A stretch of 64,000 bases of DNA, from NCBI GenBank assembly GCA_036004505.1, contig DASYRK010000033.1:52184-116183 (forward strand), written 5' to 3'. Positions 5,631 to 37,884 of this stretch are shown one piece after another. A model generated the notes under the pieces. It searched no databases. It was not told the origin of the DNA and saw nothing but the letters and a program-made list of their open reading frames with translations. The number at the start of each line of letters is the position of its first letter. Positions within the stretch are counted from its first letter, which is position 1. Origin of the DNA: Steroidobacteraceae bacterium. Lineage in GTDB: Bacteria > Pseudomonadota > Gammaproteobacteria > Steroidobacterales > Steroidobacteraceae. The position numbers and the translations under genes are program-made.

Positions 5631-6131
5631 GGCCGGTTTGCGCAAACCCGCCGGTTCCGGACCGCACACCGCGCCCGATCGTGCGCGGGTGGCGCAGTTT
5701 CAGCTCTTTTTCGCGACGGGCCCGGCTTTTTGACATTGTCCACACCCCGCGAGCCGCAATTCGGCCAGAACAGCTCAATGGCGGTCCGAACATGCTCCCC
5801 GGGGGCGCCCTTCACACGGCCCTGTGCCTTGCCCGCAACAAAGGGGGCTGCCGTGTTGTGGGGTGTATACATGAAAGACCCACGCGGCGGTCCGAAGCCA
5901 GAGAAAAACGGGACTTTCCCATGATTTCCGCGCTTCGGGGCCCGTGCTGAATTAGCAACGAAGCTTTCAAACGGCTGGGAGCAGTTGTATGCTCGACACC
6001 ACGCTTAGGTCTAGGGGTGCGGGGAACTGAACACACCTGGGTCCAAGAAGGGGAGCGTTTGCAGTAGCTGCAGCAACAGCAACTGAAACAAACCGTCCGA
6101 AATCAAACACCTCTCGCAGGAGGAGCTATCA

Positions 6132-9062
6132 ATGTCGACGAGTAACTCTATTCGGCACGCGGTTCGATACGCGCTGCTAACGAGCGCTGCGGCCGCCGCC
6201 GCAGGGCCCGCATTTGCGGCAGATCAGACGATTCAGGAAGTCGTCGTTACCGGTTCGCGCATCGCGCAGCCGAATCTCGAGACCACCAGCCCGGTTACGC
6301 AAGTCACGGCGGATGACATTGCAGTGCAGGGCGTGACGAGAGTCGAAGACCTCGTCAATCAGCTGCCGCAGGCCTTCGCCGCTCAGAACGCCAACGTTTC
6401 GAACGGTTCGACGGGTACTGCGACAGTCAACCTGCGTGGCTTGGGCTCGCCTCGCACGCTGGTGCTGATCGATGGCCGTCGTATGCCGTATGGCGGCGTG
6501 ACGAACTCTGCAGCCGACCTGAACCAGATCCCGGCCGCAATGGTCGAGCGCGTTGAAGTGCTGACCGGCGGCGCGTCCGCTGCGTACGGTTCGGACGCGA
6601 TCGGCGGCGTCGTCAACTTCATCATGAAGAAGGACTTCGAGGGCGTGCAGTTCGATGCGATGTACGGCCTCTATCAGCACAACAACGATTACGGCGGCCC
6701 CGGCGCCACGAAGCTGCGCGATGTGATCGCGGGCCGCGCTGCCACGAACCCGGCGCAGTTCAAGCTGCCTGATGACAACGTGACCGACGGCGAAGCGCGC
6801 GAGTTCAACATCACGATGGGCGTGAGCACCGAAGACGGCCGCGGCAACATCACCGCGTACGCCGGCGTCCGTGACGACAAGCAAGTGCTGCAGAGAGACC
6901 GCGACTACTCCGCGTGCTCGCTGAGCGCGAACCCAACGGTGCAGTTTGCCTGCGGCGGTTCGGACACCTCGTACCCGGGCTACTTCTACGGCGGCGGCCA
7001 GGGCCTGACCGTCTCGGGCAGCGACTTCATTCCCTACGATCCGAACGCAAACCGCTACAACTTCGGCCCGGTGAATCATTACCAGCGGCCGGACCGGCGC
7101 TACACGCTGGGCGCGATGGGTCACTATGAGCTCGCCGAAGTCGCCGACGTCTACACGCAGTTGATGTTCGCGGACTACGAGTCAGTCGCCCAGATCGCTC
7201 CGGGCGGTGCCTTCTTCGACACCAACACCATCAATTGCGGCAACCCGTTGCTGTCCGCTCAGCAGGCGGCAACTATCGGTTGCGACGCCGCGGCGATTGC
7301 GGCAGACACGATCGTTCCCCTCTACATCGGTCGGCGCAACGTCGAGGGCGGTGGACGCCAATCGAGGTTCGAGAACACCTCGTTCCGCGCTCTGCTCGGC
7401 GTTCGCGGCCAGATCTCCGAGAACTGGGACTACGACGCCTCGGTACAGTACTCATCCGTCGTTGCGGACCAGTCGGCCAACAACTACTTCCACAAGACCC
7501 GCCTGGCGCGCGCACTGGACGTCGTGACCGATCCGAATACCGGCGCGCCGACGTGCCGCTCGGTCCTCGATGGCAGCGATCCGAACTGCGTCCCGTACAA
7601 CCTGTTCACGATTGGCGGCGTAACACCGGAGGCTTTGAACTACCTCCAGGTGCCCGGCCTGCAGCAGGGCAAGATCGAGCAGGAGATCTACTCTGCGTCG
7701 GTCACGGGTGATCTCGGTGCTTACGGCATCAAGCTCCCGACGGCCACAGAGAGCATCAAGGTGGCGTTCGGCGTCGAAAGCCGTCGCGACAGTCTGAAGA
7801 ACGTGACCGACGATCCGACGTCCCAGGACCTCCTGTCGGGTGCTGGCGGCGCGACGATCGGAATATCGGGTTCCACGGACGTCATTGATGTCTTCACCGA
7901 ACTTCGTGTTCCGCTGGTGCAGGACAAGCCGTTCGCCGATCAGCTGGGCCTGGAGCTCGCGTATCGCTACTCCGACTACGATCCGGTCACCACCGACACC
8001 TACAAGATCGGTGCGGACTGGGCGCCGGTGCAGGACGTGCGGTTCCGCGCCAGCTACCAGCGTGCGATTCGCGCGCCGAACGTCGTCGAGCTGTTCACCG
8101 CGCAGGGCTTCAACCTGTTCGATCTGCCGGGCGATCCCTGCGGTGTCGATCAGCCCACGGCTACTCGCGATGCCTGTATTGCGAGCGGCGTGCCGGCAGC
8201 GGTATTCGACGATCCGGCCCGTCGGGCGCGTCTGGACAGCCCTGCTGGCCAGTACAACTTCCTGCAGGGCGGCGACGTCAACCTGCAGCCCGAAACGTCG
8301 GATACGTACACGTACGGCGTGATCTTCCAGCCGCGGTTCCTGCCGCACCTGGCGATGTCGATCGACTACTTCGACATCTCCATCGAGGACACGATCTCCG
8401 TGGTCGGAGCCGACACCACCCTGCGTGCCTGCTACGACTTGGGGATCCAATCGTCCTGCGGCCTGGTTGTGCGCAATCCGGGTAACGGTTCGCTGTGGCA
8501 AGGCGATGGACACGTGATCGACCTGAACACCAACATCGGTTCGCTCTCGACGAAGGGTGTGGACCTGAGCCTGAGCTACACCGGCGTCGAGCTGGGCGGC
8601 ATGGGCGAGTTGAGCTTCAACCTGGTCGGTACGTATCTGGATGAGCTGACCTACATCTCGGGCATTCCGGGCGACGTCCCGACCGAGTGCAAGGGCAAGT
8701 ACTCCGGCGCCCTCTGCGGCATCCCGAACCCCGACTGGCGGCATCACTTCCGCATGGGTTGGGAGACGCCGTGGAACGTCGACCTGTCGCTCACCTGGCG
8801 CTACTACGCCGAGGTGTCGAACATCGTCCCGGCGACCGCTGCCAACATCGACTACAAGCTCGGTTCGCGGAACTACTTCGACCTCGCGGCGAACTGGGCT
8901 GTGACCGAGAAGGCGTCGGTGCTGTTGGGCATCAACAACATCCTCGACAAGGATCCGCCGATCACGTCGGCGACGGGTACTACGGGTAACGGCAACACGT
9001 TCCCGCAGACCTACGACGCGCTGGGCCGCTGGATCTTCCTGCGCGCTTCGGTCGGGTTCTGA
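6132..9062 (+). CDS. TonB-dependent receptor (Oar-like, cysteine-rich loops)
   Basis: Signal peptide, TonB box EVVVTGSRI, plug motifs (NLRGLG, LVLIDGRR, ERVEVLTGGASAAYGSDAIGGVVNFI), C-terminal GINNILDKDPP...FLRASVGF and a strong AGGAGG SD. Confidence 0.96.
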   Translation: MSTSNSIRHAVRYALLTSAAAAAAGPAFAADQTIQEVVVTGSRIAQPNLETTSPVTQVTADDIAVQGVTRVEDLVNQLPQAFAAQNANVSNGSTGTATVNLRGLGSPRTLVLIDGRRMPYGGVTNSAADLNQIPAAMVERVEVLTGGASAAYGSDAIGGVVNFIMKKDFEGVQFDAMYGLYQHNNDYGGPGATKLRDVIAGRAATNPAQFKLPDDNVTDGEAREFNITMGVSTEDGRGNITAYAGVRDDKQVLQRDRDYSACSLSANPTVQFACGGSDTSYPGYFYGGGQGLTVSGSDFIPYDPNANRYNFGPVNHYQRPDRRYTLGAMGHYELAEVADVYTQLMFADYESVAQIAPGGAFFDTNTINCGNPLLSAQQAATIGCDAAAIAADTIVPLYIGRRNVEGGGRQSRFENTSFRALLGVRGQISENWDYDASVQYSSVVADQSANNYFHKTRLARALDVVTDPNTGAPTCRSVLDGSDPNCVPYNLFTIGGVTPEALNYLQVPGLQQGKIEQEIYSASVTGDLGAYGIKLPTATESIKVAFGVESRRDSLKNVTDDPTSQDLLSGAGGATIGISGSTDVIDVFTELRVPLVQDKPFADQLGLELAYRYSDYDPVTTDTYKIGADWAPVQDVRFRASYQRAIRAPNVVELFTAQGFNLFDLPGDPCGVDQPTATRDACIASGVPAAVFDDPARRARLDSPAGQYNFLQGGDVNLQPETSDTYTYGVIFQPRFLPHLAMSIDYFDISIEDTISVVGADTTLRACYDLGIQSSCGLVVRNPGNGSLWQGDGHVIDLNTNIGSLSTKGVDLSLSYTGVELGGMGELSFNLVGTYLDELTYISGIPGDVPTECKGKYSGALCGIPNPDWRHHFRMGWETPWNVDLSLTWRYYAEVSNIVPATAANIDYKLGSRNYFDLAANWAVTEKASVLLGINNILDKDPPITSATGTTGNGNTFPQTYDALGRWIFLRASVGF

Positions 9063-31867: not shown

Positions 31868-32971
31868 GTGACTCGCAACGGCCTCGTGATCGTCGCGCTG
31901 CTCGCGCTCGTCCTCATCGGCGGCGCGTGGTACCTGTTCGCGGACGGAAAGCCGTCGGCGGCGGCGGGAGGCGCCGAGGCTAGCAAAGGCGAAGCACGCG
32001 CCGTGGCCGTCGTCACGACCCACGCGGCGAAGAAGGAATTCGCCCACGAGGTCGAAGCGCTCGGCACGTTGCGCGCCAACGAATCGGTCGACATCACGGC
32101 GAAAGTGGCGGACCGGGTCGCGGCGATCCACTTCAACGAGGGTCAGCAGGTGCGCAAGGGCGAGGTGCTGATCGAGCTCGATAACACCGAGGCCCGCGCC
32201 GATCTTGCCGCGGCCGAAGCAGCCGCCAGCGACAGCCGCAGCCAGTACAAGCGCAGCCAGGAGCTGTACCAGACGAAGGCGCTGTCGGAGGCGCAACTCG
32301 ATCAGCTGCACGCGACGCTGCTCGCGAACGAAGCGCGGGTCGAGGCGGCGCGCTCGCGTCTCCACGATCGTGTCATTACCGCACCGTTCAACGGCCGCGT
32401 CGGCTTGCGCAACGTCAGCCTCGGCGGCCTGGTCAATCCCGGCGGCGTGATCACGACGCTGGACGATCTCAGCATCGTCAAGCTCGACTTCTCCGTGCCC
32501 GAGATTTTCCTGTCGACGCTGCAGCCGGGCCTGACGGTCGAAGCGCGCAGCACCGCGTATCCCGATCAGCCGTTCAGTGGCCGCGTCGCCAGCGTCGCGA
32601 CGCGCGTCGATCCGACGACGCGCGCCGTCACGATCCGCGCGCTGATCGACAATCGCGACGCCCGGCTGCGACCCGGCATGTTCATGACGGTCAAGCTGGT
32701 GCGTCGTGAAGGCCTGGCGCTGATGTTGCCGGAGCAGGCGATCGTGCCCGAGAACGACCAGCATTTCGTTTACGTCATCGAGGACGGCAAGGCGCACAAG
32801 CGCGCGGTCAAGATCGGCCGGCGCCGGCCCGGCGAAGTCGAGGTCCTGGAAGGGCTGACAGCCGACGAAGGCGTCGTCGTCGACGGCACGCTGAATTTGC
32901 GCGACGGCGCGCCGGTGCGCGTGCAAGCTGATGCGCTCGGCGGCCCGGCGCGCGTGAACGGCCAGACATGA
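31868..32971 (+). CDS. RND efflux membrane fusion protein
   Basis: N-terminal TM anchor, lipoyl-like repeats, ITAPFNGRVG, LRPGMF. GTG start at 31868 preferred. Confidence 0.92.
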   Translation: MTRNGLVIVALLALVLIGGAWYLFADGKPSAAAGGAEASKGEARAVAVVTTHAAKKEFAHEVEALGTLRANESVDITAKVADRVAAIHFNEGQQVRKGEVLIELDNTEARADLAAAEAAASDSRSQYKRSQELYQTKALSEAQLDQLHATLLANEARVEAARSRLHDRVITAPFNGRVGLRNVSLGGLVNPGGVITTLDDLSIVKLDFSVPEIFLSTLQPGLTVEARSTAYPDQPFSGRVASVATRVDPTTRAVTIRALIDNRDARLRPGMFMTVKLVRREGLALMLPEQAIVPENDQHFVYVIEDGKAHKRAVKIGRRRPGEVEVLEGLTADEGVVVDGTLNLRDGAPVRVQADALGGPARVNGQT

Positions 32972-35900
32972 TCCTCTCCGACGTTTCCGTCCGCCGTCCG
33001 GTGTTCGCGATGGTCGTGAGCCTGTTGCTCACGATCATCGGCGTCATGGCCGCGGGCCGCCTGTCCGTACGCGAGACGCCGAACGTCCAGCCGCCGATCG
33101 TCAGCATCGACACCGACTACGTCGGCGCTTCCGCGTCGGTCGTCGAATCGAAGATCACGCAGGTCATCGAGAATCAGATCGCCGGACTGGAAGGCGTGGA
33201 CACGCTGCGCTCCAGCAGCATGGACGAGCGCTCGCGCATCACCATCGAGTTCAGTCTCGACCGTGACATCGAATCCGCCGCCAACGACGTGCGCGACCGT
33301 GTCTCGCGCGTACTCAACAACCTGCCGGAAGAGGCCGATCCGCCCGAGGTCGCGAAGGTCGACACGACGTCCGACCCGATCATGTGGCTGAACCTGGAGA
33401 GCGACCGCCGCTCGCAGCTGGAGCTCACCGACTACGCGCAGCGCTACCTCGTCGACCGGTTCTCCGTCGTCAAGGGCGTCGCGCAGGTCCGCATCAGCGG
33501 CGAGCGTCGCCTCGCGATGCGCGTGTGGCTCGACCGCCAGGCGATGGCAGCTCGCAGGCTCACCGTCACGGACATCGAGGATGCGCTGCGCGCCGAGAAC
33601 GTCGAGCTGCCCGCCGGCCGCATCGAATCCAGCCAGCGCGAATTCACGCTGCACACGGACACCGGCCTGTACACGCCGAGCGATTTCCGCCAGCTGGTCG
33701 TCGGCCGCGGCGAAGGCGGCTACCTGGTGCGCCTCGGCGAAGTCGCGGACGTCGAGCTCGCGGCCGAGGACCTGCGCAACGTGGCGCGCTCCGACAGCAA
33801 GCCTTCGCTCAGCCTCGGCATGGTTCCGCAGTCGACTGCGAACGTGCTGGAGGTCGCGAAAGGCGTCAATGCCGAGATGGCGCTGGTGAAGCCGACGCTG
33901 CCGCCCGACATCAAGATGGGCATCAACATCGACGACACGGTGTTCGTCCGCGGCTCGATCAGCGAAGTCATCCACGCGCTCGTCATCGCGCTGCTGCTCG
34001 TGCTCATCGTCATCTACCTGTTCCTCGGCACGATGCGCGCAACGCTGATCCCGGCTGTGACGATTCCGGTCTCGATCATCTCGGCGAGCATCATCATGGT
34101 GATCGCCGGCTTCTCGATCAACGTTTTGACACTGCTCGGCGCCGTGCTCGCGATCGGCCTGGTCGTGGACGACGCGATCGTGGTGCTGGAAAACATCGTG
34201 CGGCGGATCGAGCTCGGCCAGCCGCCGCTGCTGGCGGCGGTCGATGGCAGCCGCGAGATCGGCTTCGCCGTGGTCGCGACCACGCTGGTGCTGATCGCGG
34301 TGTTCCTGCCGATCTCGTTCATCCCCGGCAACATCGGCCGGTTGTTCGGCGAGTTCGGCATCACGATCGCCGCGGCAATCGGCTTCTCGGCGCTGGTGTC
34401 GCTGACACTGGTGCCGATGATGAGCTCGAAGATCTTCGGGCACGGCATCGTGCGCGGCCGCGTCGCACACGCTGTCGATCGATTCTTCCGCTGGCTGTCG
34501 CAGGTCTATGAGCGCTCGCTGCGCAGCGGCCTGCACGCACCGGGGCTGATCGTCGGCGCCGGCGCTGCGGCCCTCGTGCTCGCTGTGATCCTGTTCCGGA
34601 TGCTGCCGTCCGAGTACGCACCGTCCGAAGACCGGCAGCGCGTTGTGATCATGCTGACCGCGCCGGAAGGCTCGAGCCTTCAATACATGGAGCGCTACCT
34701 GAAGCGGGTCGAACAGATCGCCGCGGTCGAGGTCGAGAAGGGCAACGCGCGCCGCATGCTGTCGCGCATCGGCAATTTCGGCGGCGGCAGCGAGGTCAAC
34801 ATCGGCCGCGTGGTGCTGTCGTTGTCGGACTTCGACGAGCGCAAGGAGTCGGCGCAGCAGATCGCGGCGCGCCTGCGGCCGCAGCTGACGAACCTTGCCG
34901 GCGTGCGCGCGACGGTCGTGACGCCGGGCGGCCTGGGTATTCGCGGTTACAGCTCACCCGTGCAGATCGTGCTCGGCGGCGGCGACTACGAGGAGCTCGC
35001 GCGCTGGCGCGACGTCATCCTGGCGAAGGCAGCGGAGAATCCGGGCCTCACCAACCTCGATTCCGATTACTACGCGCGCAAGCCGCAGCTCAAGGTCTCG
35101 GTCGATCGCAACCGCGCCGCCGATCTCGGCGTGTCGCTGACGACGGTCGGCCGCACGCTGGAGACGATGATGGGCTCGCGCATCGTTACGACGTTCCTCG
35201 ATCGCGGCGAGGAATACAACGTGATGCTGCAGGCCCGCGAGGACGACCGCGCGACGCCGAGCGACCTCGACAACATCTACGTGCGCTCCTCGACCACGAA
35301 CTCGCTGATCCCGCTGTCGAACCTGGTCCACATCGAGGAGATCGCCGGCCCGACCGAGCTGAAGCGCTTCGACCGGCTGCGCTCGATCACGATCTCCGCG
35401 AGCCTCAATCCCGGCTACTCGCTCGGCGAGGCGCTCGACTACATGGAGGGGCTGGTGCGCACCGAGCTGCCGGCGTACGCGCAGATCAACTACGACGGCG
35501 AGTCGCGCGAGTTCAAGCGCTCCGGCTCGGCGCTGTACCTGACCTTCCTGCTGGCGCTCGTGATCGTGTTCCTGGTGCTGTCGGCGCAGTTCGAGAGCTT
35601 CCGGCACCCGTTCATCATCATGATGACGGTGCCGCTCGCAGTGACGGGCGCGCTGCTCGGCCTGTGGTTCACGGGAGGGTCGATCAACGTCTTCAGCCAG
35701 ATCGGCTGCATCATGCTGATCGGCCTGGCGGCCAAGAACGGCATTCTGATCGTCGAGTTCGCGAACCAGCTGCGCGACCGCGGCATCGAGCTGCACGAAG
35801 CCGTGATCGAATCGGCTGCGATCCGCCTCCGGCCGGTGCTGATGACGAGCCTGTGTACGGTGTTCGGCGCGATTCCGCTGCTCATCGCCTCTGGCGCGGG

Positions 35901-36114
35901 CGCAGAGAGCCGCAAGTCCATCGGCGCGGTGGTCGTGTACGGCGTGATGTTCTCGCTGCTGCTGACGCTGTACGTCGTTCCTGTCGTGTACGGCTATGTC
36001 GCACGCAACACTCGCTCGCCGGAGTACATCGCGCACCTGATCGAGAAACTGCGCGGCGGCTCGAAGTCCGGCGGCGCCGGCGAGCCGGCCCACAAAGGCG
36101 CCGACGCGCAGTAG
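32968..36114 (+). CDS. RND efflux permease (AcrB family)
   Basis: SVRRPVFA, GLVVDDAIVVLENI, GLAAKNGILIVEFAN, RLRPVLMT; 1048 aa. Confidence 0.95.
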   Translation: MILSDVSVRRPVFAMVVSLLLTIIGVMAAGRLSVRETPNVQPPIVSIDTDYVGASASVVESKITQVIENQIAGLEGVDTLRSSSMDERSRITIEFSLDRDIESAANDVRDRVSRVLNNLPEEADPPEVAKVDTTSDPIMWLNLESDRRSQLELTDYAQRYLVDRFSVVKGVAQVRISGERRLAMRVWLDRQAMAARRLTVTDIEDALRAENVELPAGRIESSQREFTLHTDTGLYTPSDFRQLVVGRGEGGYLVRLGEVADVELAAEDLRNVARSDSKPSLSLGMVPQSTANVLEVAKGVNAEMALVKPTLPPDIKMGINIDDTVFVRGSISEVIHALVIALLLVLIVIYLFLGTMRATLIPAVTIPVSIISASIIMVIAGFSINVLTLLGAVLAIGLVVDDAIVVLENIVRRIELGQPPLLAAVDGSREIGFAVVATTLVLIAVFLPISFIPGNIGRLFGEFGITIAAAIGFSALVSLTLVPMMSSKIFGHGIVRGRVAHAVDRFFRWLSQVYERSLRSGLHAPGLIVGAGAAALVLAVILFRMLPSEYAPSEDRQRVVIMLTAPEGSSLQYMERYLKRVEQIAAVEVEKGNARRMLSRIGNFGGGSEVNIGRVVLSLSDFDERKESAQQIAARLRPQLTNLAGVRATVVTPGGLGIRGYSSPVQIVLGGGDYEELARWRDVILAKAAENPGLTNLDSDYYARKPQLKVSVDRNRAADLGVSLTTVGRTLETMMGSRIVTTFLDRGEEYNVMLQAREDDRATPSDLDNIYVRSSTTNSLIPLSNLVHIEEIAGPTELKRFDRLRSITISASLNPGYSLGEALDYMEGLVRTELPAYAQINYDGESREFKRSGSALYLTFLLALVIVFLVLSAQFESFRHPFIIMMTVPLAVTGALLGLWFTGGSINVFSQIGCIMLIGLAAKNGILIVEFANQLRDRGIELHEAVIESAAIRLRPVLMTSLCTVFGAIPLLIASGAGAESRKSIGAVVVYGVMFSLLLTLYVVPVVYGYVARNTRSPEYIAHLIEKLRGGSKSGGAGEPAHKGADAQ

Positions 36115-36120
36115 GCGCGC

Positions 36121-36156
36121 AATAAAAAGCCGGCAGGCGGGGAAGCACTGCCGGCT
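36121..36156 (-). terminator. Minus-strand intrinsic terminator
   Basis: AGCCGGCAG/CTGCCGGCT stem. The U-tract (TTTTTATT) is on the minus strand only, although both flanking genes are on plus. Confidence 0.7.
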
Positions 36157-36282
36157 CATGTCCTGAGCGCCCGATCAGCAAAGCGAACGCTCTCGCAGGA
36201 GGACGGTCTCTAAGACGGTCGGGCGCGTCGCAAGTTCCCCAGCGTTCCCCGCCGACCAAACAAGTATTTCGTAAGTCGCAGC
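36121..36282 (-). ncRNA. Candidate small RNA (about 160 nt)
   Basis: AT-rich tract plus TTGACG (36316-36311), a weak -10, internal hairpins, an anti-SD segment TCCTCCTGCGAGAG and an orphan minus-strand terminator. Confidence 0.4.
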
Positions 36283-36387
36283 CAGCAGACACTGAGACTT
36301 ATGGGCAGATCGTCAAGTAAAAATAATTGATAGCACGGGTCGTCTGCGGCCCGCATTGCTAGAATGCCGCCCTTTTGGCGGGATCCC

Positions 36388-37884
36388 ATGGCGCTCACGC
36401 CGTATCAACAGCTCGAGCAGGAGTTCAAGCGGCTGCATGCTTTCCGCAGCGCCGCCAGCATCCTGCGCTGGGATTCGGCCGTCATGATGCCGCGGGGCAG
36501 CTCCGACCTGCGGGGCGAGCAGCTCGCCGCGCTGGAGACCGAAAGCCATGCTCTGCTGACCTCACCGCGCGTATCGCGCCTGCTTGCCCGGGCCGAGGCG
36601 AACAGCGCCGGCCTCGAGGACTGGCAGAGCGCCAACCTGCGCGAGATGCGGCGCGAGCGCGAGCATGCGATCGCGACCCCGCACAACCTGGTGTCGCGGC
36701 TCGCCAAGGCGACGGCGCGCGCCGAGGTGAGGTGGGTCGAGGCGAAGCAGAAGAGCGACTTCGCGATCTTCGCCCCGCACCTCGAAGAGGTCGTGAACCT
36801 GATCCGCGACAAGGCGGGGCTCCTCGGCAAGGCGCTGAACCTCGACCCGTACGACGCGCTGGTCGACGAGTTCAGCCCGGGTATGACCAGCGCCGAGATC
36901 GACACCATCTTCACCACGCTCGGACGCCGCCTGCCCGGCCTGATCCAGGACGTGATCGACCTGCAGGCAAAGCGCCCGCCGCTGGAGATGAACGGGCGCT
37001 ACACGCCCTCCAAGCAGCGCCAGCTCGCGCTCGAGGTGATGAAGGCGGTCGGCTTCCCGTTCGACCGCGGCCGGCTCGATGAGAGCGAGCATCCGTTCAC
37101 CGGCGGCGTGCCCGGCGACATCCGCATCACGACGCGCTTCAGCGCGACCGATCCGCTCTCCGGGCTCATGGGCATCCTCCACGAGACCGGACACGCGATG
37201 TACGACGTCGGCCTGCCGGAGGCGTGGCGCGGCCAGCCGGTCGGCCGCGATCGCGGCATGGCGGTGCAGGAGAGCCAGTCGCTGCTGCTGGAGATGCTGA
37301 TCGGCCGCAACCGGCCGTTCCTGCGCTACCTCAAGCCGCACCTGGACAAGGCGTTCGGCGTGAGCGGCCCGGAATGGGAAGTGGAGAACGTGTACCGGCT
37401 GCTGATCCGCGTGCGTCGCAGCCTGATCCGCGTCGACGCCGACGAAGTCACGTATCCCGTGCACATCATGCTGCGCTACGAGATCGAGAACGAGATCCTC
37501 AAGGGCGAGCTCAAGGTGAAAGACCTGCCGGAGGCGTGGAACTCGCGCATCCAGGACCGGCTCGGCGTGCGACCGGCGAGCGACGCCGAAGGTTGCCTGC
37601 AGGACGTGCATTGGGCCGTCGGCTCGTTCGGCTATTTCCCCTCGTACGCGATCGGCGCCGTGATTGCAGGTCAGCTCTACGAGAGCCTGCGCGCCGACCG
37701 CCCGGAGCTCGACGACGAGATCGCGGCGGGCCAGTTCGCCGGCTTGTTCGACTGGCTGCGCCAGAACGTGCACGGCGTCGCCGCGACCGTCAGCACGCCC
37801 GAGCTGATTCGCAACGCCACCGGCAAGCCGCTCTCCGCGGCAGCTTGGCTGCGCTACATCGAAGGGAAATACCTGGAGGAGTAG
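36388..37884 (+). CDS. Carboxypeptidase, M32 (Taq-type) family
   Basis: GRLDESEHPF, ILHETGHAMY (HExxH), VQESQS, IRVDADEVTY, QDVHW, GYFPSY. Confidence 0.93.
   Translation: MALTPYQQLEQEFKRLHAFRSAASILRWDSAVMMPRGSSDLRGEQLAALETESHALLTSPRVSRLLARAEANSAGLEDWQSANLREMRREREHAIATPHNLVSRLAKATARAEVRWVEAKQKSDFAIFAPHLEEVVNLIRDKAGLLGKALNLDPYDALVDEFSPGMTSAEIDTIFTTLGRRLPGLIQDVIDLQAKRPPLEMNGRYTPSKQRQLALEVMKAVGFPFDRGRLDESEHPFTGGVPGDIRITTRFSATDPLSGLMGILHETGHAMYDVGLPEAWRGQPVGRDRGMAVQESQSLLLEMLIGRNRPFLRYLKPHLDKAFGVSGPEWEVENVYRLLIRVRRSLIRVDADEVTYPVHIMLRYEIENEILKGELKVKDLPEAWNSRIQDRLGVRPASDAEGCLQDVHWAVGSFGYFPSYAIGAVIAGQLYESLRADRPELDDEIAAGQFAGLFDWLRQNVHGVAATVSTPELIRNATGKPLSAAAWLRYIEGKYLEE

Follow-up and report, generated by a model that had tools for sequence, protein, structure and literature searches.

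A predicted small RNA of Steroidobacter with a sigma-E-type promoter and a seed complementary to the ribosome-binding sites of TonB-dependent receptor mRNAs

The 64,000 nucleotides of Steroidobacteraceae DNA analysed here (the window) contain exactly two copies of the 14-mer CTCTCGCAGGAGGA, and we find that the intergenic copy forms the 5’ end of a predicted minus-strand small RNA (sRNA) gene of about 85 nt. We consider it probable that this gene encodes an sRNA of the Hfq-dependent type which is specific to Steroidobacter, driven by sigma-E and represses TonB-dependent receptors at their ribosome-binding sites. The two copies are located at 6111-6124 and 36190-36203. Copy 1 ends 7 nt 5’ of the ATG at 6132 and covers the Shine-Dalgarno sequence of a receptor gene; copy 2 lies inside a 273-nt intergenic gap and is not followed by a start codon. 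An earlier sequence-only reading of the window had noted both copies, which were confirmed, and had proposed a trans-acting minus-strand sRNA whose anti-Shine-Dalgarno seed controls the receptor 30 kb away. This proposal is strongly supported by the genome comparisons presented below, which point to a conserved gene with its structure, promoter and terminator signals, complementary sites at receptor starts and co-variation between RNA and target. The features of the locus and of its predicted target are as follows:

32968-36114, plus strand: AcrB-type RND pump gene, left flank of the gap
36388 (ATG), plus strand: M32 carboxypeptidase gene, right flank of the gap
36232..36238, minus strand: putative -35 element GGAACTT, assigned by motif
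36211..36216, minus strand: putative -10 element GTCTTA, assigned by motif, ending 6 nt before the first conserved RNA base
36204 to about 36120, minus strand: predicted sRNA transcript of about 85 nt, GUCCUCCUGCGAGAGCGUUCGCUUUGCUGAUCGGGCGCUCAGGACAUGAGCCGGCAGUGCUUCCCCGCCUGCCGGCUUUUUAUUG, from the covariance model and homologues
36190..36204, minus strand: seed, nt 1-15, GUCCUCCUGCGAGAG, recognised by its near-invariance and containing the anti-Shine-Dalgarno sequence CCUCCU
36165..36192, minus strand: predicted hairpin 1, nt 13-40, with compensatory changes
36160-36164, minus strand: AGGAC, nt 41-45, predicted to pair with nt 1-5 and to close hairpin 1 below
36121..36157, minus strand: predicted intrinsic terminator consisting of a GC-rich stem (36127-36157) with UUUUUAUU after it, recognised by its U-tract and covariation
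6111..6124, plus strand: predicted target site CUCUCGCAGGAGGA, exact complement of sRNA nt 2-15, over the Shine-Dalgarno sequence and 7 nt before the AUG
6132..9062, plus strand: TonB-dependent receptor gene (976 aa, Pfam), predicted primary target

A repeated 14-mer is ordinary in this window. The sequence-only reading had cautioned that words of this length recur by chance, and this proved correct: the window contains 108 direct repeat pairs of at least 14 exact bases, compared to 67 +/- 8 in Markov-simulated windows, and 25 of 100 shuffles gave two or more matches to the 14-mer at up to two mismatches. The coincidence alone is not beyond chance. In the whole genome (5.45 Mb) the exact 14-mer occurs at the sRNA gene and the receptor leader only, which speaks against the genome-wide repeat that the earlier reading had named as a possible refutation. 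The case for an sRNA is built on the comparative evidence, not on the repeat itself.

Among related genomes the gap is conserved in patches. Orientation and anchoring of 24 BLAST homologues yielded a covariance model, which extended the set to about 50 homologues and scores 86.1 bits at the locus in the window (model R1, E 1.3e-19). On the minus strand, one anatomy is common to all copies: GGAAC, 17 variable bases, GTC(T/A)NA and 6 variable bases precede a near-invariant RNA start, GUCCUCCUGCGAG, extended as GUCCUCCUGCGAG(A/C)G. The body of the RNA then comprises a covarying hairpin, a conserved (G/U)GGAC and, as terminator, a GC-rich hairpin with a U-tract. In about 50 species nucleotides 1-13 of the seed are near-invariant, in contrast to the variable 6 nt upstream of them, and the onset of conservation coincides exactly with the predicted +1 base. 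From these sequence features we infer both transcription and the exact 5’ end. Conservation in relatives, which the sequence-only reading had suggested as a check of the seed, was found at both sites.

The predicted structure was assessed in a 50-row alignment fitted to the model. Of its structure cells 96.7% are paired, against at most 52% in slid controls. Changes on both sides were found in 17 of 22 pairs, a value reached by none of 500 shuffles; because a weak second match makes up one of the 50 rows, the few cells counted as compensatory in the invariant 5’ helix are to be ignored. Hairpin 1 shows compensatory changes across species in 6 of 8 stem pairs, with stem variants such as AGCGUUCG/CGAACGCU, AGCAUUCG/CGAAUGCU, AGUGGUU/AGCCACU and AGCGCGC/GCGCGCU, and the terminator stem covaries in 8 of 9 pairs. 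The lower GUCC/GGAC helix is nearly invariant and therefore without covariation support. In the predicted fold the probability of being unpaired exceeds 0.9 for nt 6-12 (CCUGCGA), nt 1-5 are paired with the conserved GGAC, and nt 13-15 are located inside hairpin 1. The seed is thus predicted to be partly buried, and full pairing with a target would need some opening of the RNA. A CsrA-binding motif had been named as another possible refutation. RNAs of the CsrB/RsmZ sponge kind carry several GGA in loops, whereas here a single conserved GGAC is predicted to be paired and the loops are free of GGA, a layout that does not resemble a CsrA sponge.

The orientation of the terminator had been given by the sequence-only reading as minus-strand with an end at 36121. 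This agrees with our data: the U-tract (36126-36121) of the hairpin at 36127-36157 is found on the minus strand only, and the stem covaries. The sRNA and the convergent RND pump gene (end at 36114) have this hairpin in common, back to back. A simple terminator scanner did not call the hairpin at 36127-36157, probably owing to its long loop.

Upstream of the predicted start, the putative promoter GGAACTT-N16-TCTTA spans 36238-36211. In 49 aligned promoters GGAAC is located at -34 to -30, followed by a 17-nt spacer of variable sequence up to the -10 element, and GTC(T/A)NA at -12 to -7 is present in 49 of 49. The information content has two maxima, at -34 to -30 and at -12 to -7, with almost none in the spacer between them; such a profile indicates a promoter rather than an RNA or protein-coding feature. 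We take GGAACTT-N16-TCTTA to be of the type recognised by ECF sigma factors of the RpoE/AlgU group, as in the E. coli sigma-E consensus. The same sigma-E consensus has been used to find the sRNA MicV (PMC6694218). An rpoE gene is present in the genome (TIGR02939 match of 315.6 bits, cut-off 236), and about 90 nt upstream of it GAACTT-N16-TCTAT is found with the same spacing as at the sRNA, as expected if rpoE were autoregulated. The strict pattern GGAAC-N17-GTC(T/A)NA occurs six times in the genome; one occurrence is that of the sRNA and one is located 114 nt upstream of bamA, identified by five POTRA domains plus Omp85. In E. coli bamA belongs classically to the sigma-E regulon. There are good grounds to think that the sRNA depends on RpoE (sigma-E): at the level of the motif it carries the RpoE-type promoter of the class of sigma-E-dependent sRNAs. 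This putative assignment is drawn from motif similarity, amid about 33 ECF-like sigma genes; of the 33 matches to RpoE/ECF sigma models in the genome, one scores above the RpoE cut-off. The large ECF repertoire stands beside many TonB-dependent receptors in this genome.

Other details of the sequence-only reading had to be revised. It had placed a promoter at TTGACG (36316-36311); the word is present, but it lies in poorly conserved sequence without a sigma-70-like match, and a sigma-70 promoter scan called no sites. The transcript, estimated there at roughly 160 nt, is predicted to be about 85 nt long with the seed at its very 5’ end. One of the proposed hairpins, GCGCCCGA/TCGGGCGC, has its 3’ arm in the variable promoter spacer, outside the transcript, and the other, CGGCG-GGGAA-CGCTG, lies upstream of the promoter; neither is conserved. 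A second near-match to the receptor region, which had also been reported, is located in a hairpin loop that varies between species.

Further conserved blocks are found on the peptidase side of the gap. Within the close subclade, AAACAAGTATTTCGTAAGTCGC and CAGCAGACAC (36257-36295) are conserved at a distance of 50-90 nt upstream of the predicted start of the sRNA; in more distant species ATTACAAAATATTTAG abuts the -35 element in their place. These blocks may represent an UP element, or a site for a regulator, in the promoter region between the divergent sRNA and peptidase genes. GCATTGCTAGAATGCCG (36350-36366) is invariant in four species and located 22 nt before the ATG of the M32 carboxypeptidase (36388). 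It looks like an extended -10 element (TGnTAGAAT), which would give a very short leader.

The covariance model detects the sRNA in 51 of the 58 genomes of the GTDB genus Steroidobacter (24 of 58 by BLAST), and 297 genomes from 71 further genera of the order gave no convincing match, the best reaching 35.8 bits. Copies in the genus mostly score 48-95 bits, with a few diverged copies at 26-38. Weak matches in other genera (E 1e-4 to 4e-6, at most 36 bits) were not counted on account of their score. In addition we scanned GTDB for the exact pattern, using one genome per species and checking matches with the covariance model. Apart from MAGs labelled as unclassified, this confirmed only genomes labelled Steroidobacter agaridevorans, S. 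flavus, S. gossypii or S. denitrificans (a MAG), together with those labelled Peristeroidobacter agariperforans or P. soli, a Povalibacter MAG and Steroidobacteraceae MAGs. The matches in MAGs labelled as unclassified turned out to be contigs of genus genomes that the covariance model had already detected, and pattern matches outside the Steroidobacteraceae (Sulfuritalea, Ideonella, actinobacteria and others) were rejected by the covariance model. Two further candidates were discarded: a second model match in the source genome (C1:23686) comprises the gene end and terminator only, without the seed, and CTCACGCAGGAGGA, a candidate of a second seed type recurring in several genomes, is coding sequence.

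The order of the locus is strictly syntenic: RND pump (plus strand), shared hairpin, sRNA (minus strand), M32 peptidase (plus strand). At the loci examined the M32 peptidase is present in 32 of 32 and the RND pump in 28 of 32. Other genomic contexts, sought as a sign of an independent unit, were not found among these loci. In two genomes (G048 and G051, 99% and 97% complete) the motif is kept at the receptor start and the sRNA was undetected even with relaxed filters; either the RNA escaped detection there, or the target site can be maintained in its absence. The one closed genome (G042) has neither sRNA nor motif. In another genome the exact seed word is located in sRNA sense near the 3’ end of a receptor paralogue (G053:C254:14741-14791), with a weak model match (E 0.002). 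This copy is probably due to chance.

The predicted primary target encodes a protein with Plug (2.7e-26) and TonB_dep_Rec_b-barrel (8e-34) domains. RNAduplex runs over all 144,769 candidate starts were too noisy in this GC-rich genome, and we therefore used the most-upstream starts together with exact-match logic. Among 18,414 most-upstream candidate starts the receptor leader has the best duplex energy (-30.5 kcal/mol), leading by a small margin in a ranking that is itself noisy at this GC content. In two close paralogues of the receptor in the source genome the match at this position is shorter (TCGCAGGAGG and TCGCAGGAG). A 92%-identical paralogue upstream of position 1389 on contig C23, outside the window, lacks the sRNA site. 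Its leader contains a hairpin, CTCCTCGC-N9-GCGAGGAG, that is predicted to sequester its own Shine-Dalgarno sequence.

Across the genus, (C)CTCTCGCAGGAGGA is retained at 4-9 nt before the start codon in the leaders of orthologous and paralogous receptors, with variable flanks, down to about 54% identity of the receptor proteins. When exact sites other than the sRNA were examined, 19 of 24 were located 4-9 nt before receptor-type ORFs (N-termini with Plug or CarboxypepD_reg domains); the remaining five lie away from gene starts, a number close to the chance expectation. With up to one mismatch allowed, the word has 355 matches in the 58 genus genomes, compared to 69 for the reversed control. Outside the genus it was found in 8 of 297 genomes (control 6), i.e. 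at chance level, and never at a receptor start. By these comparisons the putative sRNA and the target word are co-distributed and both confined to the genus. In at least 18 genus genomes a single contig carries both the sRNA gene and the main receptor target, at a distance of 20-40 kb. The predicted RNA has a conserved seed, predicted to be accessible at nt 6-12, that is complementary to the initiation regions of outer-membrane protein mRNAs.

The seed core has changed in few lineages only. In G018 the seed reads ...UGCaAGAG (RNA GUCCUCCUGCaAGAG) and the receptor leader CTCTtGCAGGAGGA; in G049 and G057 the seed reads ...UGCaAUGG (RNA GUCCUCCUGCaAUGG) and the syntenic receptor leader likewise CTCTtGCAGGAGGA. 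The syntenic receptor of G049 is located 21 kb from the sRNA. In both lineages the change from G11 to A in the RNA is matched by a change from C to T in the leader of the syntenic receptor. A BamA tree built from tblastn alignments places G018 (100/99 support) inside a clade of genomes with G-type seeds (G070, G059, G006), of which G070 and G006 also carry C-type target sites, and G049 on a branch distant from G018. Due to this placement the double change most likely arose twice, and RNA and target are most likely linked by two independent compensatory changes. At the receptor starts of the three genomes with an A-type seed no full C-type site is left. Two genomes with G-type seeds (G043 and G012) have one receptor each with the T variant, a G.U state that would be the intermediate through which such a compensatory change passes. 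Many genus genomes also contain a second BamA-like gene with 58-65% identity to the main bamA (G043:C3:3320180, G022:C2:150763, G053:C207:14787).

Our proposed mechanism is that RpoE (sigma-E) would transcribe the sRNA from GGAACTT-N16-TCTTA, starting with the G of GUCCUCCUGCGAGAG or one base away from it at most, and ending at the intrinsic terminator shared back to back with the convergent RND pump gene. Upon activation of sigma-E the sRNA would accumulate, and its nt 2-15 would pair with CUCUCGCAGGAGGA at the Shine-Dalgarno sequence in mRNAs of a subfamily of TonB-dependent receptors, including that at 6132-9062. Pairing would probably nucleate at the single-stranded CCUGCGA bulge. The duplex would occlude the ribosome-binding site, receptor synthesis would fall, and the outer-membrane assembly machinery would be relieved of large beta-barrel substrates. 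Control would presumably be repression. Hfq may take part; the RNA has a Rho-independent terminator with UUUUUAUU, which covaries, and the genome has an hfq gene, whose product is 75% identical to E. coli Hfq over 80 aa.

We considered whether the sRNA is real while the receptor mRNAs are not its physiological targets or are not repressed by it. The RNA might then act on other mRNAs, compete generally with strong Shine-Dalgarno sequences, activate its targets or titrate a protein. This we regard as unlikely. The CCUCCU core of the seed would indeed pair with any strong Shine-Dalgarno sequence, part of the seed is predicted to be structured, and in G048 and G051 the receptor motif is kept although no sRNA was detected. 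However, the 7 nt beyond the Shine-Dalgarno sequence (CUCUCGC) are conserved specifically at receptor starts, motif and RNA occur together and are both genus-confined, and the two lineage-specific compensatory changes argue for receptor mRNAs as partners. The RNA also has none of the repeated GGA loops seen in CsrA sponges.

A still less probable explanation holds that there is no minus-strand RNA and that the 14-mer is a plus-strand word bound by a protein or another RNA, present both in the leader of the receptor mRNA and, by transcriptional read-through, in the 3’ UTR of the RND pump operon. In 28 of 32 loci the element does come immediately behind the RND pump gene, and the plus-strand hairpin lacks a U-tract, making read-through possible. 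The identical substitutions at both loci would also fit one factor reading the same DNA or RNA word; here antisense pairing is favoured solely because of the minus-strand orientation of promoter and terminator. A plus-strand word leaves unexplained why GGAAC-N17-GTCnnA is found at a fixed minus-strand distance with a variable spacer, why the U-tract is on the minus strand only and why conservation stops exactly at the predicted +1; furthermore, a covarying hairpin followed by a terminator is the standard body of an sRNA. That the 14-mer is a chance repeat beside an ordinary terminator, without any functional element, would agree with the roughly 100 repeat pairs of at least 14 bases in the window (67 +/- 8 expected). 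We give it hardly any credence: the anatomy conserved in 51 genomes, together with the conserved target sites, the covariation and a co-distribution restricted to the genus, effectively refutes it. A sigma-E-driven sRNA acting on TonB-dependent receptors remains our preferred reading, and we compared it with known systems.

Searching the whole window against Rfam 15 gave no family at gathering score, including RybB (RF00110), MicA (RF00078) and OmrA/B (RF00079). A permissive search of 35950-36500 returned CC1840 as best match, on the opposite strand and with 23.8 bits at a cut-off of 50 (E 0.53). A literature search found no paper on Steroidobacter sRNAs. The candidate appears to be a new sRNA family of a known kind: it would work like RybB, MicA, MicV and OmrA/B and is homologous to none of them.

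It is known that sigma-E-dependent sRNAs repress mRNAs of outer-membrane proteins via conserved seeds (PMC6694218, PMC4102768), and both RybB and OmrA/B repress the TonB-dependent receptor FepA (PMC11979758). One of the closest likenesses is to RybB of the Enterobacterales, which is about 80 nt long and has a promoter of the sigma-E type, a seed at the 5’ end and a hairpin followed by an intrinsic terminator, which represses many outer-membrane protein mRNAs including that of FepA (PMC6694218, PMC11979758). There is, however, no similarity in sequence or model between RybB and the Steroidobacter sRNA, whose seed is an anti-Shine-Dalgarno sequence (CCUCCU) with a 3’ extension, whose 5’ end is predicted to be closed by a short helix, and whose regulon, as far as seen, consists of TonB-dependent receptors and not of porins. 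The RybB seed is not an anti-Shine-Dalgarno sequence, and RybB often pairs inside coding regions. RybB, MicV and VrrA have a seed in common, which differs from the anti-Shine-Dalgarno seed of Steroidobacter.

OmrA and OmrB, which are EnvZ-OmpR-dependent sRNAs of the Enterobacterales, likewise have a conserved 5’-end seed and repress a TonB-dependent receptor gene, fepA (PMC11979758). They differ in being controlled by OmpR via a sigma-70 promoter, not an ECF-type promoter, and show no sequence similarity to the Steroidobacter sRNA. OmrA and OmrB also repress cirA and fecA. On fepA they act by means of a stem-loop in the early coding region and not by covering the Shine-Dalgarno sequence (PMC11979758). 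MicV and VrrA of Vibrio cholerae and MicA and MicL of E. coli are sigma-E-dependent RNAs of the envelope stress response as well, and have been recognised by the same kind of cross-species alignment of -35, -10, seed and terminator (PMC6694218, PMC4102768). They belong to other families with other seeds, and their main targets are OmpA, OmpT, Lpp and porins. We know of none of MicV, VrrA, MicA and MicL from the Steroidobacterales.

We lean, if only slightly, towards the view that this is the first sigma-E-sRNA circuit to be seen outside the Enterobacterales and Vibrionales and that it is devoted to TonB-dependent receptors, with a 14-15-nt “extended Shine-Dalgarno” tag co-evolving with one non-homologous sRNA. 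If true, the tag would be invariant over a whole receptor subfamily across the genus, the seed being presented in a bulge closed by the RNA’s own 5’ end. The circuit would then be a case of convergent evolution of the RybB/OmrA logic for which natural compensatory mutants are already in hand. The paradigm of sigma-E-dependent sRNAs that lower outer-membrane protein synthesis comes nearly exclusively from work on E. coli, Salmonella and Vibrio. A non-homologous RNA in the Steroidobacterales, a distant and poorly studied soil lineage, that combines this promoter logic with a seed directed at receptors would show that such circuits have evolved repeatedly. The covariance model could seed a new Rfam family, and the sRNA would give a first handle on post-transcriptional control in a genus with numerous TonB-dependent receptors.
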